This document shows positions 32,770 to 47,868 of a DNA stretch of 64,000 nt, piece by piece. The notes under the pieces were generated by a model. It searched no databases, had not been told where the DNA came from, and saw nothing but the letters and a program-made list of their open reading frames with translations. Made by a program: the position numbers and the translations under genes. Positions within the stretch are counted from its first letter, which is position 1; every line of letters starts with the position of its first letter. The DNA is from Promethearchaeota archaeon (GTDB taxonomy: Archaea; Asgardarchaeota; Lokiarchaeia; Sigyniarchaeales; SOKP01): contig JAEOTR010000048.1 in assembly GCA_016839705.1 (NCBI GenBank), positions 24,779-88,778 on the forward strand. The letters are read 5' to 3'.

Positions 32770-34485
32770 TTACTCTAACTTATTCCAGAACTGGCTTAAT
32801 TCTTCTTTTGTAAATGTAAATTTCAAACCTGTAGGTATGGAGGGTTCGGTTCTTAAGAATTCTGGTATATAATTTATTTCATGTGGTATTCCTGCTTTTT
32901 CATTAAATTCTAATTCAGTCTTTATAATTCTCTTCCCAATGTTAATCACATCTTCTCTGGTTAATTTTAAATTATACATTGCGTTTAATGCTCCTTTCAC
33001 AATTTCCATATTCTCAAAACTCGGTCCTATGAAATAACAGCAGCCTAAAGAATCTAAAATAACTGTGTAAAGCTGCAATTCATATGATAAGTCTAGTTTT
33101 CCTTTATTCTCTGTGAGTTCACCATAATCTTTTGTTTGGCTTGCAACTCTCCCAGCGATAGCAGCACCTGCAGTGTGATCTGCGCCCATAGGAGTTGTAG
33201 CATATGTTATACTCATAGCTTTAAAGACTCTTGGGTCATATCCGGAAATTCCTTGCCCTTTTACATGAGGAATTCTTTTGACATTGAGATCTTCTCCTAA
33301 GTGACATACACCATTTCCATATTGCTTTCCTAGTTCAGATCCCTGTTTTATTTCTCCTAATGTTTCAAAAACTCTTTTCGCATCACCCCAGGGAACCTCA
33401 CCAGCATCCATCGCAACTCCCATAGTAACCCCCAATTCTATTGTATCAATACCTATATCATCGCATAAATGATCAATTTTTGCTATATCATCCAGATTAT
33501 TAATGAGGAGGTTAGAACCATTAGCAAAAATTGTTTCATATTCAAGACTAGACGTTAAATGAACCCCATCCTCATCAACAAATATATTAGAACATTTAAT
33601 AACACAGGTAGGACTACATGGAACGCGTTTTTTCCCACCTCTAGCAGATACAAGCTCATGAAGTCTCTCTCCGGATATATCAATAGCATCATCAAAGGAA
33701 CCCCTCTTAAAATTTTTGGTTGGCAAACCCCCATAAGCACTCATCCCCCTAACCATATTTGGAGTACCATAGATTGAAAAATTCTTCTTGGATTCTGCCA
33801 GTTCTTTGGCAAATGGTTTTGAGACTTCTCGAAATTTTTTTAAATCAAATATTCGGACTTCTGAATTTCTCCTAGGGAAAATAATGATTGCTTTAATCCT
33901 CTTTGATCCCATAACCGCACCTAGGCCCCCTCGAGCTGCATGACGACTTGGGTACCCTTCTAAATCGTTCACGGCAACACTGGCAGTCTTCATTAGATGC
34001 TCTCCAGCAGGACCAATTGAATAAATTCCTATCCTATTTCCGTATTTTCTATATAACTCCTCATGAAGCTTGTAGTTGCCTAATTTTTCATACTCTTCAG
34101 CAGAATCAAATTTAATACCATCTTCATCAACAAATATCAATTTTATTGCTGATGATTTCCCTTCTAACACCAATGCTCTTATCCCATAAGAAGCCAGCAT
34201 TATAGAAGCTCTACCACCTACGTTTGCTTCCTTTATTCCATTAGTTAACGGACTTTTTGCCCCAACTGAAGTACGACCAGAACAAGGAAAAGGACTCCCT
34301 GTTAGTAAACCATTAGCAAAAATTAATTTGTTTTTTTCACCCAAGGGATCACATAATGGGGGAACTTCATCAGCAATAATTTTAGAGGATAAACCTCGCC
34401 CACCTAATAAAAAATATTTTGAATCTTCTGAAATTTCTTCATAGATTGTTTCTTCTGTCTGTACATTAACTCGTGCGATTTTCAT
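32770..34485 (-). CDS. tungsten-containing aldehyde:ferredoxin oxidoreductase family protein
   Basis: AKSPLTNGIKEANVGG, IGPAGE, ARGGLGAVMGSK, C-x3-C-x3-C, EYET, DDIGIDTI, YDPR, GADHT. Confidence 0.92.
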   Translation of the reverse strand: MKIARVNVQTEETIYEEISEDSKYFLLGGRGLSSKIIADEVPPLCDPLGEKNKLIFANGLLTGSPFPCSGRTSVGAKSPLTNGIKEANVGGRASIMLASYGIRALVLEGKSSAIKLIFVDEDGIKFDSAEEYEKLGNYKLHEELYRKYGNRIGIYSIGPAGEHLMKTASVAVNDLEGYPSRHAARGGLGAVMGSKRIKAIIIFPRRNSEVRIFDLKKFREVSKPFAKELAESKKNFSIYGTPNMVRGMSAYGGLPTKNFKRGSFDDAIDISGERLHELVSARGGKKRVPCSPTCVIKCSNIFVDEDGVHLTSSLEYETIFANGSNLLINNLDDIAKIDHLCDDIGIDTIELGVTMGVAMDAGEVPWGDAKRVFETLGEIKQGSELGKQYGNGVCHLGEDLNVKRIPHVKGQGISGYDPRVFKAMSITYATTPMGADHTAGAAIAGRVASQTKDYGELTENKGKLDLSYELQLYTVILDSLGCCYFIGPSFENMEIVKGALNAMYNLKLTREDVINIGKRIIKTELEFNEKAGIPHEINYIPEFLRTEPSIPTGLKFTFTKEELSQFWNKLE

Positions 34486-34760: not shown

Positions 34761-35678
34761 ATGAATCGAAACTTTGTAAGAAGTAATAACAAGAGTGAAA
34801 CAGATTTTTCTCAATCTCATTGTTGCGACAATCCCTTCATTGAATCTCGAGATGGTAATGAAATTTGTATAAATTGTGGTTTAATCTTTGAAAGGACATT
34901 CGTGGGAAATGAACGGCGCGCATATACTGTAGAGGAGATACAGACGCGCCGAAGGACTGAGCCGCGATGGAGAGATTTCGGCCCCCGAACAATGTTGCCA
35001 AACACTAAGACAGATAGCAAAGGGAAGAGTATCGGAGCTAAAGAACAAGCATTATTCTCGCGATTATCCAAAATTCAGAACTCATTAATTTCAAGTATTG
35101 AACGTAATTTCTGGGAAGCAAAGCCGAAATTAAAGATGTTAACGAGTAAATTAAATGTACCCGAATACATCTCAGAAACCGCATGGAAAATATATAGTAT
35201 TGTAGCAAAGAAAAAATTAACGATGGGGCGTTCAATTAACGGATTCATCGCAGGATCCTTATATGCAGCGATTCGCGTTCATGATTTTCCTCGTTTACTG
35301 GATGAAGTATGTGAAGCTTCTTTAACCCCAAGAAGAACCGTTCATAGAAGTCTAGCAATGATAATTAGGGAAGTATTACCTGAACTAAAACTTCGATATC
35401 AGCCAATTACTGCTGAATGTTTAGTATTTAGATTTGGTAATGAATTAAACTTACCAATTCAGATACAAAAAATTGCTATTAATATGCTAAAAGATGCTTC
35501 AAAAAATGGCTTACAGAGAACTGGAAAAGATCCTAAAGGATTAGCAGCTGCTTGTATTTACATTGCAGCAAAAAATGGATCGATTAGAAAAACTCAATCC
35601 AAGGTCGCTGACATTGCTAAGATCACAGAAGTAACTCTCCGAAGTCGTGCTAAGCAGATTAAGAATAAGCTTAGATAG
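34761..35678 (+). CDS. tfb: transcription initiation factor IIB
   Basis: Zn ribbon (CCD...CINCG), ERRAY, two cyclin repeats, GKDPKGLAAA, ITEVTLRSR. Confidence 0.92.
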   Translation: MNRNFVRSNNKSETDFSQSHCCDNPFIESRDGNEICINCGLIFERTFVGNERRAYTVEEIQTRRRTEPRWRDFGPRTMLPNTKTDSKGKSIGAKEQALFSRLSKIQNSLISSIERNFWEAKPKLKMLTSKLNVPEYISETAWKIYSIVAKKKLTMGRSINGFIAGSLYAAIRVHDFPRLLDEVCEASLTPRRTVHRSLAMIIREVLPELKLRYQPITAECLVFRFGNELNLPIQIQKIAINMLKDASKNGLQRTGKDPKGLAAACIYIAAKNGSIRKTQSKVADIAKITEVTLRSRAKQIKNKLR

Positions 35679-35807
35679 AGAAATGCATTAATCTGGGTTA
35701 AATATTTAAATCTTTTTTATTTTTCTATGTTCCCCCAAAATAGATAACCCATTAAATTTAGAGCAAATTATTAGGTTCTTTTTAAGTTAACTTCCCACTT
35801 AGTTTCT

Positions 35808-36392
35808 TTATTCTTTTTTAGTTTCTAATTCTTCAATATCTAGCGTCCATTTAACGCCAAAAGCAGTAATTATTAGTGAAATAATCATTAAAAAACAATT
35901 CACAGCAATAAAGTATGTCCAAAATATCGCAGGCATGAGAGGTGTTATATCTGAACGATATAACGCAGTTTGGAATGCTACTGATCCACTACCTGTTGAC
36001 AAAGGTGTTTTTCCTAATAGAACAAGATAATTCATTTTTATAAACGCTCCTAAAAGTATTACCATTCCAATAACAATCATTAATTTAGCTAGTGATTTAC
36101 TTTCAATCTTGTTAGTTTTAGCTGTCTTGAATATAAAGAATCCTAAAATTAAGAATAAGATCATAGAAATGATAAAAAAGAGCCATAAGACGGTTCCTGT
36201 TAATGAAATATAACTTGATCCATACATAAATTCTGATAACAGAATTAGACTACCATTAAGATTAAATTCAGTAAAATTTAATGTAATAAAAAAAGCAATT
36301 TCTATAATAGAAAGACACATAAAGATAAGGCCATTAATTTTAAGAAATTTTGTTAATTTTTTATGGTCCATATTTATCAACACAAGTAGCAA
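35808..36392 (-). CDS. four-TM membrane protein, unknown function
   Basis: Four hydrophobic segments; likely start at the MDHKK ATG (36371). Confidence 0.65.
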   Translation of the reverse strand: MLLVLINMDHKKLTKFLKINGLIFMCLSIIEIAFFITLNFTEFNLNGSLILLSEFMYGSSYISLTGTVLWLFFIISMILFLILGFFIFKTAKTNKIESKSLAKLMIVIGMVILLGAFIKMNYLVLLGKTPLSTGSGSVAFQTALYRSDITPLMPAIFWTYFIAVNCFLMIISLIITAFGVKWTLDIEELETKKE

Positions 36393-36493
36393 GAAAAATT
36401 TTTTATTCTATTATATTTTTACTTATTATTGTTTTTGAAATTTTTAACAATTTTTAATATTATTGTTTTTTTCTGCAAGTCTAATTTATTCAT

Positions 36494-37522
36494 TTGAACA
36501 AGATCGTTGATTTTTTGAAAGAAAAAAGAAACAATACAAAGGAGCAGTCGTTATGTCTTCATAAAAATATGAAGAAAGTTAAGGGACATTATCACTGTCA
36601 AGATTGTGGGAAACGATTATCTCTTAAAGAATATTACAAATTAAAAAAAACAAAAGAATCCCTTCCTGAACAAAACCTTACATTTGAAGAACCTACTAGT
36701 GATTTCTATTCAGAGTCCCAGATTGATTATGAAAGAAAGATAAAAATGAGTGATTCAAAAGCTTTACAAGACCCGGTAATTAAGGAAAAGTATGAGCGTC
36801 TGAAAACATTAGAAAAATGGTTTCGGGATTATGAAACTGATTTCACAGAACAAAAAAAAACGATCGAACTTCTAAAAAACCATGGAATAGGATTAACTAT
36901 TGATAATGTAAAATATCGAGAAATTCGAGATCTTTACCTACGCTATAATAAATATCATCGTCATAGCTACCAAAATATGGTCATTATTTTTCTCGCAATA
37001 ATATGGATGGAAATAAAGGACACCACCAATATTCGGATTGATGAATTCATTAAAGTGTCGAAAGAATTAGGTCATAAAATTAATAAGAAAATGATTACAA
37101 ATGCAATGTTAAAAGTGAAGAGAACTGAAAATTTGATACAACAGAAAAAAAGCATTCCTGAATTAGAAAAAGAAATCAAAGAAAAAATAAAATTGGTCTT
37201 TCAAAAAGACATAAATACCATTCCGTTTGAGGAAGTCAAAGAATTCTTCCAGAGCACTTCTGAATTTGAAAAGATGAAAATTACTATGCAGTTAAACGCA
37301 GATAAGATACTACAACAGATTACCTATGAAGCAATCCATAGCTTAAATTATAAAGCCTTTGTGGCAGGTTTAATTTATTATATTGGTCAAATGTTTGAAA
37401 ACCGCAAGATTTTTACGCAGAATTTAATCGAAAAATACACCAAATTCTCAAGCACAACAATAAGAAAAAAATTTCACACCCTTATAGATCTCTTAGGGGA
37501 ACCTCAAAAATTTCAACTCTAA
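36494..37522 (+). CDS. divergent TFIIB/cyclin-fold protein with N-terminal Zn ribbon
   Basis: CLH...HCQDCG; C-terminal AFVAGLIYY...FTQNLIEKYTKFSSTTIRKKF resembles the TFB second-cyclin HTH. Confidence 0.6.
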   Translation: MNKIVDFLKEKRNNTKEQSLCLHKNMKKVKGHYHCQDCGKRLSLKEYYKLKKTKESLPEQNLTFEEPTSDFYSESQIDYERKIKMSDSKALQDPVIKEKYERLKTLEKWFRDYETDFTEQKKTIELLKNHGIGLTIDNVKYREIRDLYLRYNKYHRHSYQNMVIIFLAIIWMEIKDTTNIRIDEFIKVSKELGHKINKKMITNAMLKVKRTENLIQQKKSIPELEKEIKEKIKLVFQKDINTIPFEEVKEFFQSTSEFEKMKITMQLNADKILQQITYEAIHSLNYKAFVAGLIYYIGQMFENRKIFTQNLIEKYTKFSSTTIRKKFHTLIDLLGEPQKFQL

Positions 37523-37627
37523 TTTTTTTAAAATAATAATTTTAAATGAATTCCATACCATTAAAAACCTTTAAATCTATACTATTTATTATTCTAACTA
37601 TATTTACCAGAACTAGTACCAATCAAT

Positions 37628-40483
37628 ATGTCAGAGGTAAAAACATCTAAAGGGACTTATTATCATCAACCCCTCAATGAATTACTGAGAGAATTTAAGA
37701 CTGATTTTGATCGTGGATTAAAATCGTCTGAGTTAGAGGATAGATATCTAAACTATGGTCATAATGAATTGCCAAAGATCAAGAAATCTATATGGAAAAT
37801 ATATTTTGCCCCAATTTTTAATTTCCTAATCTTAATTCTCCTTGTAACAGGAATAATCGTAGTTATCTTAGGTTCGCCCGGAGAAACCGTCATAACTTTT
37901 ACTGTTGTGTTTATAAATTCTGCAACCGTGATCATCCAGCAGTATAGAGCCCAAAAGGCGCTTGAATCTTTACGACAAATCTCCGCTTTGAAAGCGACAG
38001 TTCTGAGAGATGGAAAACAATTTGAAATACCGAACAGGGAATTAGTTCCAGGAGATATTGTAATCTTAAATCAAGGAGACAAGATTCCCGCAGATGGGAG
38101 AATTGTCGACCAAGTCAATTTAACAATAGATGAAGCTCCTTTAACTGGAGAAAGTGAACCTGTAGAAAAGAATAACAATATCCTCAGTAAAGATGATGTA
38201 TCCATCCAAAAACAGTCAAATATGATGTTTATGGGTACATATGTGCATACTGGAAGGGCAAAAGCTTTAATAACTGGTACTGCCGCAAATACTGAAATAG
38301 GAAAAATCTCTGTTACTTTGAATGAGATGGGAAGTATTGAAGAGATTCCCCTAACCCGAAAATTAAATAGATTAGGACATATTTTGGGAATAATAGTAAT
38401 AATCAATTTATTTGTATTAATAACTTATAAATTCATTCTCTTAGCTGACAATAATAATTTAATTCAATCAGAAATTACACACGCTTTAGTAAGTTCTATT
38501 ATTAGGGCAACAAATGTACTTCCAATAAATTTGCCTCTATTAAGCACTCTTGTTCTCATAACAGGCGTTTTAAGTATGGCTCAACACGGAGTAATTATTA
38601 AAAATTTATCCGCAATTGAATCACTGGGACGCGTATCCGTAATCTGTTCGGATAAAACTGGTACAATTACCAAAAACGAGATGACCGTTGAAAAGTTTTG
38701 GATAGGTGAGAAAGAGTATGATGTTAGTGGCTCCGGGTATGATGCAGAAGGTGAGATATTATTCAATGGGCAAAAATTTAATCTTAACGATAATTCTACA
38801 TTCCAAAAATTCATCGATTCAATTGTTTTGAATAATAATGCACAACTTATTTTTGAAGATGTAAAAATTCGGGTAGCTGAACGAAAAGAAATGGCAGTAA
38901 GACGTGCTTTAGGATCTCCTACCGAAGCAGCATTGCTAGTTTTAGCAGAAAAGGCAGGATATATCCCATATGATGTGAAAAAAAAGTATACTCTTTTGAC
39001 TGAATTTTCTTTTAGCTCCGAATTAAAACGTATGAGTTCGATCTATGAATTAAAGGAGAATAATAAACAGAAATTTGTATTCTCTAAAGGAGCTCCTGAA
39101 AAAATTCTAACAATCTGCTCCCAGATTGAAATAGATGGAAGTATTGAAAATCTAGATAATAACCATAAAGAAAAAGTTTTAGAAAAAATAAGAGATCGAG
39201 CAAATCAAGGTTTTAGAACATTAGCAATAGCGTATAAAATGTTAGGTGATACTAATCAATCAAAGCGCGAAAATATCGAAAAAAACCTAATATTATTAGG
39301 ATATGTTTCAATTATGGACCCACCCCGTAGTGGTGTTAAGCAATCGGTGGAAGAATGCAAATCGGGTGGTATCCAGGTAATTATGATTACAGGGGATCAT
39401 CCTGCTACAGCAAAAACTATTGCTGCGCAGATGGGTATTTATAATGAAGGAGAAATAGTGGCAGAGGGAAAACAAATCAAGGATTTTAACGACCAAGAAT
39501 TCAAAAAAATATCTGTATTTGCGCGTGTAGAGCCCTCTGACAAGGAAATCATTGTAAATCATTATCAAGATAAAAATCATGTGGTAGCAATGACGGGAGA
39601 TGGAATAAATGATTCACTTGCTTTAAAATTAGCAAACGCGGGTATCGCTATGGGAATAACTGGAACTGATGTTGCCAAAGAAACAGCAGACATGGTCATT
39701 TCAGATGATAATTTCACATCAATTGAAAAGGGTGTTAAAATCGGTCGGGGTCTCTTTTCTAAAATTAGAGTAATAATCTATTTTTTTATCTGTTTAAATA
39801 TCATGGAAGCAATTATATTCTTTACTTATGAATTTATTCCTACATTTGAGCTTTTTAGCTCTGAATGGCAACATATTTATATATTTGGAATTGTTCATTC
39901 GCTTCCTTCATTAGCGTTAGTTATAGACTCACATCCTAAAGATATTATGCTTGAACCACCCAGAGATGAGGAAGAAATCTTAAACAAAAAGATATGGGTA
40001 ATGTTATTAGCACAAGCGTTTTTGATGGGTATAGGGTTAGTCTTGGCGTTACAACTAACTTTAGGGGGTGTTAATCCATTAAATGAATGGAATCTAAACC
40101 CAAATATTAGTTATATAGTACCTGGACAAGAATTAGCTCAAAAAGCAAGAACCATGTTTATTACTACATTATTTATTGTTGAAACCAATTTCATTTGGAG
40201 TTTTAGACGACCAAACAAATCTATGTACAAAAGTATAAAGGAAGAATTTAATATTTCCTTATTTACGATTTGTTTTCTTACATTAGGATTGCATATTCTC
40301 TATATTTTATTTTCATATAGCGTTAATTATTATGTGAACATTGTTTTTGGGTTAGATTTACAGATAAACTTCATGTTCCTTAGTGGATTAGACTGGTTAA
40401 TTTGTATTTCGCTTGCATTACCAGGGATAATAGGTATAGAAATATTAAAATATTTCGCACGTAAAAGAAAAATCTACTTTTGA
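37628..40483 (+). CDS. P-type ATPase (P2-like scaffold, atypical ion-binding motifs)
   Basis: TGES, CSDKTGT, KGAPE, MITGDH, MTGDGIND; M4 reads LPINLP. Confidence 0.92.
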   Translation: MSEVKTSKGTYYHQPLNELLREFKTDFDRGLKSSELEDRYLNYGHNELPKIKKSIWKIYFAPIFNFLILILLVTGIIVVILGSPGETVITFTVVFINSATVIIQQYRAQKALESLRQISALKATVLRDGKQFEIPNRELVPGDIVILNQGDKIPADGRIVDQVNLTIDEAPLTGESEPVEKNNNILSKDDVSIQKQSNMMFMGTYVHTGRAKALITGTAANTEIGKISVTLNEMGSIEEIPLTRKLNRLGHILGIIVIINLFVLITYKFILLADNNNLIQSEITHALVSSIIRATNVLPINLPLLSTLVLITGVLSMAQHGVIIKNLSAIESLGRVSVICSDKTGTITKNEMTVEKFWIGEKEYDVSGSGYDAEGEILFNGQKFNLNDNSTFQKFIDSIVLNNNAQLIFEDVKIRVAERKEMAVRRALGSPTEAALLVLAEKAGYIPYDVKKKYTLLTEFSFSSELKRMSSIYELKENNKQKFVFSKGAPEKILTICSQIEIDGSIENLDNNHKEKVLEKIRDRANQGFRTLAIAYKMLGDTNQSKRENIEKNLILLGYVSIMDPPRSGVKQSVEECKSGGIQVIMITGDHPATAKTIAAQMGIYNEGEIVAEGKQIKDFNDQEFKKISVFARVEPSDKEIIVNHYQDKNHVVAMTGDGINDSLALKLANAGIAMGITGTDVAKETADMVISDDNFTSIEKGVKIGRGLFSKIRVIIYFFICLNIMEAIIFFTYEFIPTFELFSSEWQHIYIFGIVHSLPSLALVIDSHPKDIMLEPPRDEEEILNKKIWVMLLAQAFLMGIGLVLALQLTLGGVNPLNEWNLNPNISYIVPGQELAQKARTMFITTLFIVETNFIWSFRRPNKSMYKSIKEEFNISLFTICFLTLGLHILYILFSYSVNYYVNIVFGLDLQINFMFLSGLDWLICISLALPGIIGIEILKYFARKRKIYF

Positions 40484-40531
40484 GTTTTTATAGTTAATTT
40501 TAAATAATTTGAGCCTTCTTTAAGGTATATC

Positions 40532-41071
40532 ATGACTAATAATACTTCTACCCAAAACGATATCCGTAAGCAATTTGAAGAAAAACTGATGGAATTAAAG
40601 AATTCACTCCCACCTTTAGGAAAAAATATAGGAAATAGTTGTGCTGCTGATACTCTTAACAGTATCTTAGAAATTTTAAATTTAAAAGATATAAAAAATG
40701 ACTACTTTAACAATCTAGCGGTCCCTTTTAGTGGATTTGCTCATTTTATTGGTAAGAATGGGTGGAAAGGTCCATGTGGTGCGATTTTTGGTGCTCTTGC
40801 GGCTATTGGGATTATATCAGGAGGACAAAGTAAAATTGAAGATTTGGATGTTCCCAAAGTATATGGTAAAGCTTTAAAATTTGCTAAAAGGTTCGAAGAA
40901 GAATTTGGATCTGTAATGTGTGAAGAATTGTGTGGTTTTGATTTAAATACTGATCTTAAGCAATACGTTAAAACTAGAGCGTGGGAAAATAAATGTTGTA
41001 ATTTCATTCTTTTCGCAGTTGATCAGGTGTCGAAAATTACTCGAAAAGAACTTAGACAACTTTGGAGTTAA
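40532..41071 (+). CDS. C-GCAxxG-C-C family putative redox protein
   Basis: NSCA...GPCGAIFG...FGSVMCEEL...KCC. Confidence 0.82.
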   Translation: MTNNTSTQNDIRKQFEEKLMELKNSLPPLGKNIGNSCAADTLNSILEILNLKDIKNDYFNNLAVPFSGFAHFIGKNGWKGPCGAIFGALAAIGIISGGQSKIEDLDVPKVYGKALKFAKRFEEEFGSVMCEELCGFDLNTDLKQYVKTRAWENKCCNFILFAVDQVSKITRKELRQLWS

Positions 41072-41228
41072 ATTAGATAAATTTATCTGATTTTATCAAT
41101 TAAATGGAAATAGAGTTAAATTAATTATCCTCAAATATTAAAAGTCATGATTATTATAGGATATTTATTATATTGAATTGATTTTCAAACTCATACATAT
41201 AAAAAAAACTGTGGAAGTAAAATTCAAC

Positions 41229-44147
41229 ATGGAATCTACAGAAGATAAATATTATAATCTTGAATTGAGTCAAATCTACAAAAATCTTGAAACAAATCCT
41301 GATAATGGTTTGACTGAAAAAGAAGCTAAAAAACGATTAGAAGAAGATGGTTTAAATGAAATCCCTAAAGTGTCAAAAGGATTCATTAAAATATATCTAG
41401 CGCCATTGTTTAACTGGTTAATCGTTATTTATCTTATAGGAGCATTAATATTATTTTTAGCTTGGGTTTTAGGCGGTGAGGGACAATTAATTTTTATTAC
41501 TTTAACTTTATTTATTGTATTTTTAAATTGCTTAGTTGCTATTGTTCAACAATATAGAGCTACTAAAAAGCTTAAAGCATTACGAGAATTAACCGCACCT
41601 ACATCTACTCTTATGAGAAATGGACAAAAATTAGAAGTTCCAACTAAAGAGATAGTTAAAGGAGATCTATTGATTTTAAATCAAGGAGATAAAGTACCTG
41701 CCGATGCTAGAATAATTAAAGGGTTTAATCTTGAAGTGAATGAGGCATCATTAACAGGAGAAAGCGAACCAGTAAAGAAGGATGAAACCGGTAAAGTGAT
41801 ATCTGAAAAAGATCTTGCTATTGCTGACCGAATTAACATGATTTTTTATGGTACATTTATAACAACAGGTAATGGTAAAGCAATAGTAGTAAAAACTGGG
41901 GGGAAAACTGAAATTGGGAAAATTTCACATGGTTTAGAAGAAGCTGGAACGAGTGAGATTCCAATTCGACAAAAAATGAACAATTTTGGCAAATGGTTAG
42001 GGCTCGGAGTTTTTATATTTTGGTTTATAATTCTAATGATTTTATGGGTTTTACCCCCACACGAGCTTGATGTTGTTAAAAGCCTAAATTCTGCTCTTGA
42101 TTTAATGCCAATAAATATTCCATTATTGGTTACTATTGTTTTGATAACTGGTGTTCTTGCGATGGCTCATCATGGAGTTATAATAAGAAACCTAGCCTCA
42201 GTTGATAGTTTAGGGCGTGTAAGTGTTGTTTGTTCTGATAAAACAGGTACTTTAACCAAAAATCAGATGTCTATTCAGCACGTTTGGACAAACGGCTCAA
42301 TATTTCGAGTTACAGGAAGTGGTTATTCTCCTGATGGTGATATTGTTCTAATGGATGATCCCAAAAATCATACATATGTAAAACATATAGATGAATATCC
42401 TCATCTCAAATTACTTTTGACTTCAGGTTTTTTGAATAATAATTCTGCGTTAGTGAAACATGAAATTGAGATATCTGGGAAAACCATTTATGATTGGAGT
42501 GTGATTGGTTCTCCTACAGAAGGGGCACTTATGGTTTTATTTCAGAAAGGGATGGGAGACTACCTCCTTGATGAATTTGAGGCAATTACAGAATATCCCT
42601 TTGATAGTTCATTAAAAAGAATGACCAAACTTTATAAAAGAGATCATGTATATGTTTCCTTTACAAAAGGAGCAAGTGAAATTCTAATACCTCTGTGTAC
42701 CAAAATTATATATAATGATAAAGAAATTGAGTTTGGGCAAAGTATCAAAAATAAAGTAATGGAAATAGTTGATCTATATGCAAATCAAGGATATCGGATT
42801 CTAAGCTTATGTTATAAAGAAATGGATGATATTCCCCTGGAAGGAGAAGAGGGGAGAAAAGTTAGTGAATCAGCCTTAACATTCATTGGTTTTGTAACAA
42901 TATTAGATCCTCCTAGGGAGGGAGTAAAAGAATCAGTTGAGCAATGTCATGAAGCAGGAGTAGATGTTGTAATGATTACCGGTGATTCACCGGCTACAGC
43001 TAAAGCTATTGCTTCACAAATCTCAATTATTACTCAAGAAAGTGAAATTGTGATAGAAGGAAAAGAAGTTAAAGATATCAAATCATACGAGGATTTTTCA
43101 AAAATTAAAGTCTTTGCTCGTGTCGAACCGGCTGATAAAGAAATAATTGTACAAAAATATCAGGAACAGAAAAAAGTTGTAGCCATGACAGGTGATGGTG
43201 TAAACGACGCTTTAGCCTTAAACTTGGCTGATGCCGGGGTGGCAATGGGAATTTCGGGAACGGATGTAGCTAAAGAAGCCTCAGACATGGTAATTTCCGA
43301 CGATTCATTTAATTCGATAGTTACAGGTATCCATGAAGGGAGGGGAATCTTCGCAAGAATCCGTGCTGTCGTGATATTTTATATCTGCACTAATGTTTTT
43401 GAAGGCCTTATTCAATTCATTTTAGCAATAATTTTAAAAAAACCCTATTTTTTAGATGATCCCTTTTATTATCAATGGATTTTTCTTTCAATAACCTTAC
43501 ATATATTTCCAGGTTTAATTCTTACGTTTGACATTACATCAAAAGATGTAATGAAAGAAAAACCACGCGACTCAGAAGAAATTCTTTCGAAAAACACAAT
43601 TGTTCTTTTATTCATCTTTGGCATTTTACTCGCAGTGAGCATGGTTATAGTATATTTTATTACAATAAGCGGAATATATCCTGTTTTTCCCGAGAATATA
43701 GATATAAGTGGATTAAACTATGCATATCTCTATACTCCAGAAACTGAGCCATTTTGGGGTGATATACTTCGTGATTTCTATCCTTTGGTAACTGATCCAG
43801 AACTATTTCAATATGGGAAAGCACTCACAATGCTAATGGTGACTCTATTTTTCTGCGAATCCTTCTTAGTATTTCAGATTCGACGTCCAAATAAATCATT
43901 AATAAGAAGTTTACTTGAAGATAGTAATAGAAGAATGTACTACATCATTGGTTTTCTATTTGCGCTATTTTTAATGCTCATGTATATTCCAGGGGTACAA
44001 GTAACTCTTGCAGATTGGGGTATTAATTTCATGTTCATGTATTTAACAGGATTAGATTGGTTCGTCTGTTTCTTAATATCCCTAGTCTGTATCGTTTCCT
44101 TTGAGATTGTCAAATACGTGGCTCGTAATTATGGTATAACTTTTTAA
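41229..44147 (+). CDS. P-type ATPase (paralog; atypical ion-binding motifs)
   Basis: TGES, CSDKTGT, KGASE, MTGDGVND; M4 reads MPINIP. ATG at 41229 preferred over TTG at 41178. Confidence 0.92.
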   Translation: MESTEDKYYNLELSQIYKNLETNPDNGLTEKEAKKRLEEDGLNEIPKVSKGFIKIYLAPLFNWLIVIYLIGALILFLAWVLGGEGQLIFITLTLFIVFLNCLVAIVQQYRATKKLKALRELTAPTSTLMRNGQKLEVPTKEIVKGDLLILNQGDKVPADARIIKGFNLEVNEASLTGESEPVKKDETGKVISEKDLAIADRINMIFYGTFITTGNGKAIVVKTGGKTEIGKISHGLEEAGTSEIPIRQKMNNFGKWLGLGVFIFWFIILMILWVLPPHELDVVKSLNSALDLMPINIPLLVTIVLITGVLAMAHHGVIIRNLASVDSLGRVSVVCSDKTGTLTKNQMSIQHVWTNGSIFRVTGSGYSPDGDIVLMDDPKNHTYVKHIDEYPHLKLLLTSGFLNNNSALVKHEIEISGKTIYDWSVIGSPTEGALMVLFQKGMGDYLLDEFEAITEYPFDSSLKRMTKLYKRDHVYVSFTKGASEILIPLCTKIIYNDKEIEFGQSIKNKVMEIVDLYANQGYRILSLCYKEMDDIPLEGEEGRKVSESALTFIGFVTILDPPREGVKESVEQCHEAGVDVVMITGDSPATAKAIASQISIITQESEIVIEGKEVKDIKSYEDFSKIKVFARVEPADKEIIVQKYQEQKKVVAMTGDGVNDALALNLADAGVAMGISGTDVAKEASDMVISDDSFNSIVTGIHEGRGIFARIRAVVIFYICTNVFEGLIQFILAIILKKPYFLDDPFYYQWIFLSITLHIFPGLILTFDITSKDVMKEKPRDSEEILSKNTIVLLFIFGILLAVSMVIVYFITISGIYPVFPENIDISGLNYAYLYTPETEPFWGDILRDFYPLVTDPELFQYGKALTMLMVTLFFCESFLVFQIRRPNKSLIRSLLEDSNRRMYYIIGFLFALFLMLMYIPGVQVTLADWGINFMFMYLTGLDWFVCFLISLVCIVSFEIVKYVARNYGITF

Positions 44148-44220
44148 AGAGCTTGCCTCTAATTTTATTTTTTTAATTCATTTCATTAAATTTTTATCCA
44201 AACACTCATTTTTTTCCTTT

Positions 44221-44760
44221 ATGTTAATAGGAGAGCGAATTACTCTTGGACCTGTTAAAAGAGAATATATTGATCCTTATCTTAAGTGGTTTAATGACCC
44301 AGAGATAATCCAATATTTATCTATGTTTCGGCCAATGACTCGCATGATGGAGGAAGATTGGATTGAAAACTTAAAGAATCGAGATGATACTATTGCTTTT
44401 GCTATTCTTATTACCAATGAAAATGTAGGAGAAAAGCTTATTGGAAATTGTGGGCTCCATGCAATAGATTGGAAAAATCGAGTGGCGGAAGTAGGAATCA
44501 CTATAGGAGAAAAAGAATATCAAGGTAAAGGTTATGGAACAGAAGCTATGGAATTATTAGTAGATTATGGATTCAAATCTGTAAATTTAAACCGAATCCA
44601 GTTACGTGTTTATCAATTCAACAGTAGAGCTATAAATTCTTATAATAAAATAGGTTTTGTAGAAGAAGGCCGAATGAGAAAAGCAATTTTTATTAATGGA
44701 GAATATCACGATATTATTTTTATGAGTATTCTAAAAGAAGAGTGGTTAAAAGAAAAGTAA
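44221..44760 (+). CDS. GNAT acetyltransferase, RimJ/RimL family
   Basis: IDWKNRVAEVGITIGEKEYQGKGYGTEA, NSRAINSYNKIGFVEEG. Confidence 0.9.
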   Translation: MLIGERITLGPVKREYIDPYLKWFNDPEIIQYLSMFRPMTRMMEEDWIENLKNRDDTIAFAILITNENVGEKLIGNCGLHAIDWKNRVAEVGITIGEKEYQGKGYGTEAMELLVDYGFKSVNLNRIQLRVYQFNSRAINSYNKIGFVEEGRMRKAIFINGEYHDIIFMSILKEEWLKEK

Positions 44761-44798
44761 TAAGTACGGAAGAGGTCTTAAATTTTAAAGATAAAATC

Positions 44799-45335
44799 AT
44801 GCTGAAAGGAGTCAAAGTAAGACTGGTTCCTCCAAAAAAAGAATATATTGATCGTTTTCAAAAGTGGATGAATGACCTTGAGATTACTCAACATCTTACG
44901 GTTTTCAGGCCAATTACTAAAGAAATGCAAAAAGATTGGTATGATTCAATGATTAAGAGCGAGAATAACATTCTTTTTTCAATCGTAGTATCTGATGACG
45001 ATAATAACGAAAAACTAATAGGAAATTGTGACATTGATGTTGATTGGAAAAACAGAGTAGGATCGTGTGGAATTGTAATAGGAGAAAAGGAATATCATGG
45101 AAAAGGGTATGGAACTGAAGCTATGAAGTTACTGGTGGAATATGGCTTTACAACATTAAACCTTAATAGAATTGATCTGGAGGCACACAGTTTCAATTCT
45201 CGAGCATTACAATCATATATGAAAGTTGGATTTAAAAAAGAAGTAATTCGGCGACATGCTGTTTATATAAATGGTGTATACCACGATTCTATCGTGCTTA
45301 GCATTTTAAGGGATGAATGGCAGAGGAATAAATAA
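44799..45335 (+). CDS. GNAT acetyltransferase, RimJ/RimL family (tandem paralog)
   Basis: GIVIGEKEYHGKGYGTEA; alignment with the upstream paralog places the start at ATG 44799. Confidence 0.9.
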   Translation: MLKGVKVRLVPPKKEYIDRFQKWMNDLEITQHLTVFRPITKEMQKDWYDSMIKSENNILFSIVVSDDDNNEKLIGNCDIDVDWKNRVGSCGIVIGEKEYHGKGYGTEAMKLLVEYGFTTLNLNRIDLEAHSFNSRALQSYMKVGFKKEVIRRHAVYINGVYHDSIVLSILRDEWQRNK

Positions 45336-45550
45336 CGAATTATGTCTATAAATTATCATCCTTATTTGATGACAAAATAAAATTTAAATTACACTTTGAT
45401 GTAACTAAAATTATAAGTGAAGAAATCATCCCGATATTTAAAGATTCTAATTAATGATATCTTATTTTTTGTTTTTTCTTAATTTTGATACTAATTAATT
45501 TTTTAAGAAATATCATTGATAACACCAATGAAAAGAAAATAAAAATAGAA

Positions 45551-46597
45551 TTATTTCTCTAATTCTTTAAAATACGGTATTATTTTATCTCGAAATATCT
45601 CATATACTTTATTTATATCAGGACCTCTATTCATTACACTTATGTGGGTTATTCCCGCTTCTTTATATTTTTCTATACTTGCAATAACATCATCTGTTGT
45701 TCCTAAGCAGTTGAAATCTTGGAGAATTGTTTCAGGTAATCGATTTAAGTGACCAAGTAACTCTACTACGAGATTACCGCTCATATCAAAATCATGAACA
45801 CTAATTCCTTCTGGTAAATTTAAGTTTGGGTATGCTTCATTCGTGATCCAAGAATTTAATAAATAAGAAGACTTAAAAAATTCACATCTTTTTACAGCAT
45901 TATCAGGATTATCATCATCTATGGCTACAAAACAATCATACACATAATCAATTTCATTGGGATCTCGATCAGCCTTTTTTGCCGCTTCCCTCACTTCTTT
46001 TACGTTCCTTTTTATAACCCATGGTGGTTGATAAAGCGGGTACCACCCATCTCCTAATTCTCCTGTTATTTGACGCGTCTTTGGTCCATTAGCCGCAATA
46101 TAGATTTGTGGACTCTCCTGAACTGGTCTTATATCAATGTAAGCATTTTTCATTTCTCCCCAGAAATCACTTTTATGATTAACTTTTTTCTTAGTCCAAA
46201 ATTTTCTTAACAAGATAATATATTCGCGCAATTTTGAAATCGATCTCTTTCGATTTAACCCATACATGTCTATATTCATTGCTTCACCTGCTCCAAGTCC
46301 GATCATACCTCGACCATTAGAAATTTGATCTAGTGTTGCAACTTTATGTGCCATTAGTGCAGGATGAAAGCGATGACAATCAGATACTCCAGTGCATAAT
46401 TTGATCTTTTTGGTTATCATTGCTAAAGCTGTTAGAAAACAATAGGCATCATAACAAGTTCCTGTACGTGGTGGAAACATTGTTGTATGATCTGCATAAA
46501 AAACTCCAAAAAAACCACTTTCCTCAGCCTTTTTAGTCCCTTCGAACATATATTCAAGACGAGGGGTTGGTACAGGTATATGGAAACTAAATCTCAT
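45551..46597 (-). CDS. LLM-class (probably F420-dependent) oxidoreductase
   Basis: ADH, HPALMAHKVATLDQISNGR, GLGAGE, AANGPK, GDGW. Confidence 0.88.
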   Translation of the reverse strand: MRFSFHIPVPTPRLEYMFEGTKKAEESGFFGVFYADHTTMFPPRTGTCYDAYCFLTALAMITKKIKLCTGVSDCHRFHPALMAHKVATLDQISNGRGMIGLGAGEAMNIDMYGLNRKRSISKLREYIILLRKFWTKKKVNHKSDFWGEMKNAYIDIRPVQESPQIYIAANGPKTRQITGELGDGWYPLYQPPWVIKRNVKEVREAAKKADRDPNEIDYVYDCFVAIDDDNPDNAVKRCEFFKSSYLLNSWITNEAYPNLNLPEGISVHDFDMSGNLVVELLGHLNRLPETILQDFNCLGTTDDVIASIEKYKEAGITHISVMNRGPDINKVYEIFRDKIIPYFKELEK

Positions 46598-46746
46598 TAA
46601 ATATCAATCTCCTCTAATAAATTTTAAAAATTTTAGTTCAAAATTATTTTATATTTATTTTATTTTGATAACTGTGGAAATTCTATAGGTTTTTAAAATT
46701 TTTAGAATTTCAATATAATATTCATAAAATATAATAAAGTGATAAA

Positions 46747-47868
46747 ATGGATCTTGATATAAAAATCGGAACAGAGGGAACTTTTATACCTCCCTTTGAT
46801 AGAGGTATGGAAACTGTTAAAAGAATCGAAGCTAGCGGTTATGATTCAGTGTGGTTTGCTGATCATCTAATGGGTTGGATACCCGAATCAATATGGACTC
46901 CTGATCTCATTCAAATGTCAACAATTCAGAATAGTCCTCATGATTTTTATGATGTTTATTCTATGATGGCAATTGCTGCGTGGACTACTCAAAAAATTCA
47001 AATCGGTACTAGTGTTACTGAATCATTTAGGAGGCATCCCGCCATTCTTGCTCAAACTTTTCTAACAATGGACCATGCATCAAAAGGACGAGCCATTCTC
47101 GGCATTGGAACAGGAGAAGGGGAAAATGTTATTCCTTATGGTATAAAATGGGAAAAACCTGTTAGTAGACTAGAGGAAGCAATTAAAATAATTAAACTTC
47201 TTTGGGAAAATGAAGGTCGAGTTAGTTATAACGGTGAATTTTGGAAATTAAAAAATGCTGTTATTTCTCTAAAACCTTATAGAGAAGGAAAATTCCCTCC
47301 AATATGGGTCGCAGCACATGGACCTAAGATGTGTGAATTAACCGGTAGATTAGCAGATGGATGGTTACCTACGAACTTCAATCTTTCAACTTATAAAGAA
47401 AAGCTTGATATTATTCGAAATTCTGCTAAAAAAGCAGGGAGAAATCCAGATGATATTACTCCTGGTCTCTGGCATAATATAATTATTGATGAGGATCATA
47501 ATGAATGTGATAGATTATTAGAAACTGCATTTGTAAAAAACTATAGTCTTCTTCAATCAAATGAGTATTTTAAACAATTTGGAGTTTCGCATCCCCTTGG
47601 TGAGGATTTTTATGGTCTTCTTGAGTACATTCCTACAGAATATACCCGAGAAACAATGCTTAAGGCTTTTGAGAAAATTCCGTCAAATTTATGCGAAGAA
47701 ACATTTTTACATGGCACTCCAGATGAGATTATATCTAAAATTGAAGATTATGCTAAGATCGGTTTAAAGCACATCGTTCTTTATAATATGACCTATTCTT
47801 GTGATACAAGCAAAGTAAAAAGCTCATTCGGGTGTGTGAAGAAAGTTTTACAGTATTTTAAAGGTTAA
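46747..47868 (+). CDS. LLM-class (probably F420-dependent) oxidoreductase
   Basis: WFADHL, RRHPAILAQ...DHASKGR.LGIGTGE, AAHGPKM, ADGW; divergent from the paralog. Confidence 0.88.
   Translation: MDLDIKIGTEGTFIPPFDRGMETVKRIEASGYDSVWFADHLMGWIPESIWTPDLIQMSTIQNSPHDFYDVYSMMAIAAWTTQKIQIGTSVTESFRRHPAILAQTFLTMDHASKGRAILGIGTGEGENVIPYGIKWEKPVSRLEEAIKIIKLLWENEGRVSYNGEFWKLKNAVISLKPYREGKFPPIWVAAHGPKMCELTGRLADGWLPTNFNLSTYKEKLDIIRNSAKKAGRNPDDITPGLWHNIIIDEDHNECDRLLETAFVKNYSLLQSNEYFKQFGVSHPLGEDFYGLLEYIPTEYTRETMLKAFEKIPSNLCEETFLHGTPDEIISKIEDYAKIGLKHIVLYNMTYSCDTSKVKSSFGCVKKVLQYFKG

Follow-up and report, generated by a model that had tools for sequence, protein, structure and literature searches.

Two P-type ATPase genes, P0001 and P0002, lie in tandem in the stretch of DNA analysed here (the window), which comprises 64,000 nucleotides of contig JAEOTR010000048.1 (positions 24,779 to 88,778, assembly GCA_016839705.1). 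The contig has a low GC content (~31%) and comes from an Asgard metagenome-assembled genome (MAG) of the Promethearchaeota/Lokiarchaeota type, the assembly being 93% complete. Both genes probably encode catalytically complete, single-site pumps of the P2 class that would move a small cation other than Ca2+. They are members of what is apparently a distinct and undescribed archaeal subfamily inside the P2 class, here called the His clade. P-type ATPases are among the best-understood pumps, and the Glu in transmembrane helix 4 (M4) and the Asp in helix 6 (M6) are regarded as near-universal ion ligands. The His clade is old, widespread in archaea and uniformly annotated as Ca2+-ATPase, yet both of these ligands are replaced in it and a His is fixed in the ion pocket.

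Conserved positions in the ion-binding sites

P0001 and P0002 share 41% identity, and in both of them all three side-chain ligands of SERCA Ca2+ site II (E309, N796 and D800) are replaced. In a HMMER alignment of P0001 with the Listeria Ca2+-ATPase LMCA1, I300 stands under the M4 Glu (AIPEAL), F753 and H757 stand under the first Asn and the Asp of the M6 motif INLVNDSLP, respectively, and LNIME is placed under the N..(A/E) stretch of M5. Site I is affected differently: the equivalents of N768, E771 and E908 are kept (three of five ligands), the bridging Asp is always His, and an Asn has been gained in M4. The equivalence of the M8 Glu comes from a MAFFT multiple alignment with canonical P2A pumps only, in which this column is Q/E.

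The machinery for ATP hydrolysis and phosphorylation is intact in both proteins. The hallmarks of the P-type superfamily (DKTGT, TGE(S) and the TGD / GDGxND hinge) are present, the superfamily model TIGR01494 (HAD-IC) gives 286 bits for P0001 and 281 bits for P0002 against a cut-off of 62.3, and the Pfam architecture of both pumps is Cation_ATPase_N, E1-E2_ATPase, Cation_ATPase, Hydrolase and Cation_ATPase_C. A preliminary description of this DNA had reported intact DKTGT, TGES and GDGxND motifs, PINLP/PINIP in place of PEGLP, His in place of D800, a retained M5 NxxE and M8 Glu, and the loss of Ca2+ site II in both paralogues. Each of these motifs was located again (table 1), and the loss of site II holds for all of its side-chain ligands. 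Translation of P0002 probably begins at the ATG at 41229, which gives a protein of about 972 amino acids.

Table 1. Coordinates of the two pumps, their motifs and adjacent open reading frames (ORFs) in the window
Feature	Position	Strand	Remark
342-aa ORF	36494..37522	+	no Pfam match; Zn-ribbon-like N-terminus
P0001, P-type ATPase	37628..40483	+	open, complete frame, 951 aa; His clade, P0001-type subclade (Loki/Hel lineage)
P0001 TGES	38144-38155	+	A-domain motif
P0001 M4 PINLP	38522..38536	+	I300 = SERCA E309 position, N301 = G310 position
P0001 DKTGT	38651..38665	+	phosphorylation motif
P0001 GDGIND	39596-39613	+	
P0001 M5 LNIME	39794-39808	+	N724-x-x-E727 at 39797..39808 = SERCA N768/E771, retained
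P0001 M6 FGIVHSLP	39884-39907	+	His757 codon 39896..39898 = SERCA D800 position
P0001 M8 IVETN	40175-40189	+	Glu852 codon 40181..40183, inferred SERCA E908 position (MAFFT only)
C_GCAxxG_C_C gene (putative redox)	40532..41071	+	between P0001 and P0002
P0002, P-type ATPase	41178..44147	+	open, complete frame, 989 aa from TTG; subclade spread across Asgard families
P0002 TGES	41754-41765	+	
P0002 M4 PINIP	42108..42122	+	
P0002 DKTGT	42237..42251	+	
P0002 GDGVND	43191-43208	+	
P0002 M5 TNVFE	43389-43403	+	
P0002 M6 SITLHIFP	43488-43511	+	His775 codon 43500..43502
P0002 M8 FCESF	43851-43865	+	contains M8 Glu

The replaced positions are shared by the relatives of the two pumps. The M6 His is found in all 34 His-type cluster representatives (the column itself defined this set), in the 30 Asgard loci assigned to the clade and in 23 relatives from Thermoplasmatota, and P[IF]NLP is present in 120 of 120 close orthologues. 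No representative combined another non-Asp residue in M6 with a P-hydrophobic-N motif in M4. The agreement of motif and His across the relatives exceeds by far what chance would be expected to produce. The signature of the clade consists of P-hydrophobic-N/S-hydrophobic-P in M4, N-x-x-E in M5, an invariant His in M6 and Glu in M8, and it is accompanied by further differences from canonical pumps (table 2). These site residues are invariant or nearly so despite deep divergence, the terminal branches being mostly 0.2-1.1 substitutions per site. Read from the alignments, the change is one that selection has maintained across a large and old clade and not the result of decay, as had been proposed from the two paralogues.

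Table 2. Residues that differ between canonical pumps and the His clade (SERCA numbering)
Region	Canonical	His clade
M1	Q56	Pro
M1	D59	Asn
M2	E109, E113	Gln
M4	E309	hydrophobic residue (I/V/L/F/W)
M4	G310	Asn/Ser
M6	D800	His (100%)
M6	first Asn	variable
M8	Q/E	Glu (97%)
P domain	GDGxNDxPAL	xLAL / AAL

The loss of acidic residues in M1 and M2 was also considered as a de-acidified Ca2+ funnel. This idea is weakened by the M2 QE Glu, which is also kept in P3A and P2C references; the M1/M2 changes are a signature of the clade and are not specific to Ca2+. Other rare M4 variants are found on pumps that are canonical in the remaining respects: a Halanaerobium MAG has PQALP, with Glu for the M6 Asp, and a Nanoarchaeota MAG has PNALP.

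Placement of the His clade in the P2 class

The 120 closest relatives are 68-87% identical, and those that are named belong to Loki-, Thor-, Hod-, Hermod- or Promethearchaeota. When 1.84 billion cluster representatives were searched exhaustively, the full-length matches above ~545 bits showed P-[IVLFW]-N/S-x-x in M4, N-x-x-E in M5 and His in M6, apart from cluster P0144 (PIMIP), which varies at the N/S position of M4, and cluster P0154 (PVSIP), which varies at this position and at the M6 His. Below ~545 bits canonical PEGLP / NLVTDGLP pumps predominate, and a small number of divergent His-type clusters reach down to 474 bits.

His-type sequences are monophyletic, with a Shimodaira-Hasegawa (SH)-like support of 98 in FastTree (85 sequences, rooted on the same genome's own P1B pumps) and an SH approximate likelihood-ratio test (SH-aLRT) value of 99 in IQ-TREE (54 sequences). 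The references of the IQ-TREE analysis were canonical Asgard pumps, named bacterial SERCA-/PMR1-type pumps, P2C-like pumps and one P3A pump; among these the clade falls within the P2 radiation and ranks equally with the P2A-like and P2C-like groups. It stands apart from P3A and P1B in the trees. P0001 and P0002 fall into different subclades, and the duplication is therefore old.

Fold and domain order, judged by the Pfam architecture, the structural matches and the position in the tree, likewise assign the pumps to the P2 class. The AlphaFold2 (AF2) model of P0001 has the 10-helix P2 fold (predicted local distance difference test, pLDDT, 87.4; predicted template modelling score, pTM, 0.83), with the M4 helix unwound over residues 296-301 and the M6 helix broken at His757. 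All of the top 50 Foldseek matches of this model are P2 pumps, and the template modelling (TM) score reaches 0.80-0.84 to E2P-like SPCA1 and SERCA2b. The best sequence matches in the PDB are LMCA1, SPCA1 and SERCA. The best NCBIfam models for the clade are IIA2, IIA1, IIB and IID (all P2 types), each under its cut-off; for each of the six clade members scanned, P2A models give the highest scores, at 420-514 bits (below the cut-offs), and the order after P2A is IIB, IIC and IID, then P3, then P5.

Comparison with characterized pump families

The P2A Ca2+-ATPases (LMCA1, SPCA1/PMR1 and SERCA), which give the best sequence, profile and structure matches of the His clade, share with it the domain order, the 10-helix fold, the TGES/DKTGT/GDGxND motifs, the N..E of M5 and an unwound M4 with two prolines. 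However, the scores of P0001 and P0002 remain below the P2A equivalog cut-offs (TIGR01522, 462 and 490 bits against 798; TIGR01116, 456 and 429 bits against 703), as do those of four further clade members, and where P2A pumps have the Glu of M4 PEGLP and the N-x-x-(T)-D of M6, the His clade reads I, F/variable and H.

P3A H+-ATPases resemble the clade in having a hydrophobic residue at the E309 position, within P-hydrophobic-x-x-P, and in presumably being single-site pumps. In plant AHA2 the M4 motif is PIAMP, and a genuine archaeal example from Methanobacterium sp. (L131:3146-5221; TIGR01647, 920 bits) reads PVAQP, which indicates that a hydrophobic M4 residue such as Ile is not specific to flippases. 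Unlike the His clade, P3A pumps keep the M6 Asp (LLDD) and have an Arg in M5; the clade scores 311-365 bits with TIGR01647 against a cut-off of 615.5 and branches with P2. In the same Methanobacterium locus (L131:100-5221), a Na,K-ATPase-like P2C-type pump (PEGLL, DLGTD) adjoins the P3A-type pump.

For the P2D Na+ pumps (ENA/ATP4), TIGR01523 is the second-best model of P0002 and P0131 (405-429 bits), and a monovalent-cation function is plausible. The scores of the clade members, 369-429 bits, are under the cut-off of 645. Fungal ENA1 is not known to carry the M4 Glu. PfATP4 keeps the equivalents of E309, E771, D800 and E908 (PMC11745376). P6 (CtpE-type) ATPases are also P2-like pumps in which the TM6 Asp is replaced, but they keep PEGL in TM4 and have Ile in TM6 (PMC10654040), where the His clade has PINLP and His; they are bacterial and are reported to be absent from archaea (PMC5615198).

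No description of the His clade was found in the literature searched. The review of Palmgren 2023 covers P1-P6 and expects further prokaryotic families, without listing this one (PMC10654040). The preliminary description had allowed that the genes might belong to an already characterized cation-pump subfamily with the same motif; none was found, and the genes are a new, uncharacterized variant of P2-type ATPase.

Distribution and coexistence with canonical pumps

Matches of at least 590 bits are present in ~90 of the 151 sampled Asgard genomes (about 60%) and in ~12 of 27 family-level groups, usually as 2-5 copies per genome; all 20 of the lower-scoring matches that were fetched turned out to be canonical pumps. 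Named members outside the Loki group come from Hel-, Odin- and 'Kor'-archaeota MAGs. A basal subclade with PWSFP in M4 and STH[LI]FP in M6 comes from Thermoplasmatota, so that the clade is archaeal and not strictly Asgard. A search for related loci in genome contigs, using an alignment of basal members, gave 80 loci with 82 pump ORFs, 77 of which are canonical; the only His-type ones are two ORFs of a single Promethearchaeota locus, and this search gives no picture of the spread outside Asgard archaea.

With a canonical Asgard pump as the query, canonical pumps were detected in nearly all of the same genomes, including all four congeners; their motifs (PEGLP/NLVTDGLP) were checked in ten ORFs from eight loci. 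This coexistence implies that the His clade has a separate job and does not replace the canonical, presumably Ca2+, pump. The present assembly is an exception, only two P1B and three His-type pumps having been found in it. In some genomes of this family canonical PEGL pumps, too, are arranged in tandem pairs (G040:C25:147454-153403, locus L150, and G135:C185, locus L154).

Possible function of the His-type pumps

What cargo, then, would such a site carry? We propose that the pumps run through a normal E1-E1P-E2P-E2 cycle and would bind a single substrate in the site-I pocket, formed in P0001 by E727, E852, N724, H757 and N301. The bulky M4 residue (I/V/L/F/W) could act as a hydrophobic plug or gate in the place of E309, and the His could be a ligand, or else a built-in counter-charge that carries a proton and permits TGES-driven dephosphorylation; built-in counter-ions occur in other P-type families (Palmgren 2023, PMC10654040). 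Two buried Glu in the canonical ion pocket are typical of cation pumps, which supports a cation as the cargo. If it is a small cation, a monovalent one has somewhat less than an even chance, H+ being a tentative candidate and Na+/K+ a weaker one, and a borderline divalent transition metal (Mn2+/Fe2+/Zn2+ class) is about as tentative as H+. The first-shell residues of the two old paralogues are identical, and the tandem pumps probably differ in regulation, kinetics or second-shell selectivity and not in chemistry.

Several observations weigh against this interpretation or against one of its candidate cargoes. Neither a conserved neighbour nor a regulator, chaperone, riboswitch or terminal metal-binding domain indicates any ion. 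The pocket geometry was inferred from homology and not taken from model coordinates; in addition, the C-terminal 172 amino acids alone gave no PDB relative, and the equivalence of the M8 Glu stays alignment-based. As to a metal, the pocket offers one soft ligand only, the genome already has two P1B pumps and five CDF transporters, and the first shell shared by the paralogues argues against differing metal specificities. As to H+, the clade retains more of site I than a proton needs, and genuine P3A pumps retain the M6 Asp, which speaks against a simple proton mechanism of the P3A kind. As to Na+, His is an unusual ligand for this ion, and a phyletic comparison of the clade with CPA-type Na+/H+ exchangers showed no clean anticorrelation. 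Such an exchanger (PF00999) was not detected in this genome or in 21 of the 25 genomes of its family, and most other Asgard families have one.

The preliminary description was likely right in assuming a non-standard substrate, but its flippase-like reading, with a lipid as the conceivable cargo, is opposed by the P4 profile scores, the A domain, M5, the P2 folds and the tree. We regard as unlikely a convergent flippase-like transporter that would move lipid, amphipath or organic cargo through an M1-M2-M4-M6 groove, with the M4 Ile as its gate and the Glu/His cluster as a structural counter-ion. The one P4-like trait is the M4 Ile followed by a small polar residue (PINL compared with PISL; P-W-S-F in the Thermoplasmatota branch); as in the P4 flippases (ATP8A1/2, Drs2), the classical cation ligands, including those for Ca2+, are erased, and the pump gene of Thermoplasmatota-type contigs is flanked by those for a GT4 glycosyltransferase and a sugar epimerase, an envelope-glycan context. 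This context is, however, confined to the local synteny of a few related contigs, a P3A proton pump has a similarly hydrophobic residue in M4, and the membrane core strictly retains two charged Glu. P4 flippases have DGET, a Lys in M5, a CDC50 subunit and a eukaryotic distribution, whereas the clade scores 86-123 bits with TIGR01652 (cut-off 431), its A domain is TGE-type and never DGET, and M5 has N..E and no Lys. There is no conserved partner gene, and the genome gave no match to CDC50/LEM3 (PF03381) in a search run without a positive control; TGES instead of DGET and the lack of a visible CDC50-like subunit had already been put forward as caveats. Some P4B pumps function without CDC50. That the clade is an intermediate by descent between P2 pumps and eukaryotic P4 flippases, as had also been suggested, is hardly credible: Asgard archaea are the closest known relatives of eukaryotes and the M4 Ile is common to both groups, but the clade branches among prokaryotic P2 groups (in a tree without eukaryotic P4), extends to Thermoplasmatota and shows no P4 signature beyond one or two M4 residues, and the 151 Asgard genomes gave no P4-family match, again without a positive control.

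On the other hand, the genes could be Ca2+ (or Mg2+) efflux pumps, as annotated, that carry one ion at a modified site I. The kept equivalents of N768, E771 and E908 would suit this, as would the lack of a canonical pump in the present assembly; the annotation in the source databases is Ca2+-transporting ATPase, and Asgard homologues appear as putative Ca2+-ATPases in Russum et al. 2021 (TC 3.A.3.2.21; PMC7997004). Yet canonical PEGLP pumps occur alongside the clade in the congeners and in most other Asgard genomes, this genome has a CaCA exchanger, all P2A equivalog cut-offs are missed, His is a poor ligand for either ion, and, according to Palmgren 2023 (PMC10654040), every Ca2+ efflux pump has the TM6 Asp, all of which makes such a role quite improbable. 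Non-transporting or degenerating ATPases (a sensor or a relic) would explain the lost classical ligands, but they are very improbable given the full set of intact catalytic motifs, the 68-87% identity of close orthologues, site residues that do not vary from phylum to phylum and tandem copies that are kept across the whole family. There is also a small chance that the His clade forms a new P-type subfamily whose transport chemistry is without precedent on a P2 scaffold, namely a His-based proton or transition-metal pump or, more radically, an archaeal lipid/amphipath transporter with an independently evolved P4-like hydrophobic gate.

If the cargo of the proposed small-cation pumps were identified, the P2 family would gain a new specificity class. 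Arguments for Ca2+ signalling in Asgard archaea draw on transporter inventories, which would then be corrected, and the result would bear on how Asgard cells energize or detoxify their membranes.

Gene neighbourhood

Throughout the family to which the window belongs, a P0001-type pump gene is paired in tandem with a P0002-type one; the two are immediate neighbours in most genomes, and in four they are ~1 kb apart. Within the 15 loci compared, the C_GCAxxG_C_C gene located between the pumps is peculiar to this window, and it is not a conserved partner. The 342-aa ORF is kept directly upstream of the P0001-type pump in family f1 only. A third, partial copy of the P0001-type pump lies on contig C95 of the same genome, and the Zn-ribbon-like ORF has been duplicated along with it (G000:C95; L005:26-1048). 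Clustering of the neighbourhoods of the 15 loci revealed lineage-local synteny only (the Zn-ribbon ORF in f1, subtilase and panB in f7) and no accessory subunit, and an Rfam scan of positions 35500-45500 detected no riboswitch. Besides the two P1B pumps and five CDF transporters, the genome encodes one CaCA exchanger.

In the Thermoplasmatota-type contig L158:6683-13390, the PWSFP/His pump is flanked by the GT4 glycosyltransferase on one side and by an Sm_multidrug_ex-like membrane protein and the NAD-dependent sugar epimerase on the other; the GT4 gene recurs upstream in the related contig L160, and the epimerase downstream in L159. This context may be related to an envelope glycan.

Other genes near the pumps of the window include an aldehyde:ferredoxin oxidoreductase gene (32770-34485) and a true TFIIB gene (34761-35678). 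Downstream of the pumps there are two overlapping tandem GNAT acetyltransferase genes (44221-45335), followed by a divergent pair of luciferase-like monooxygenase genes (45551-47868).

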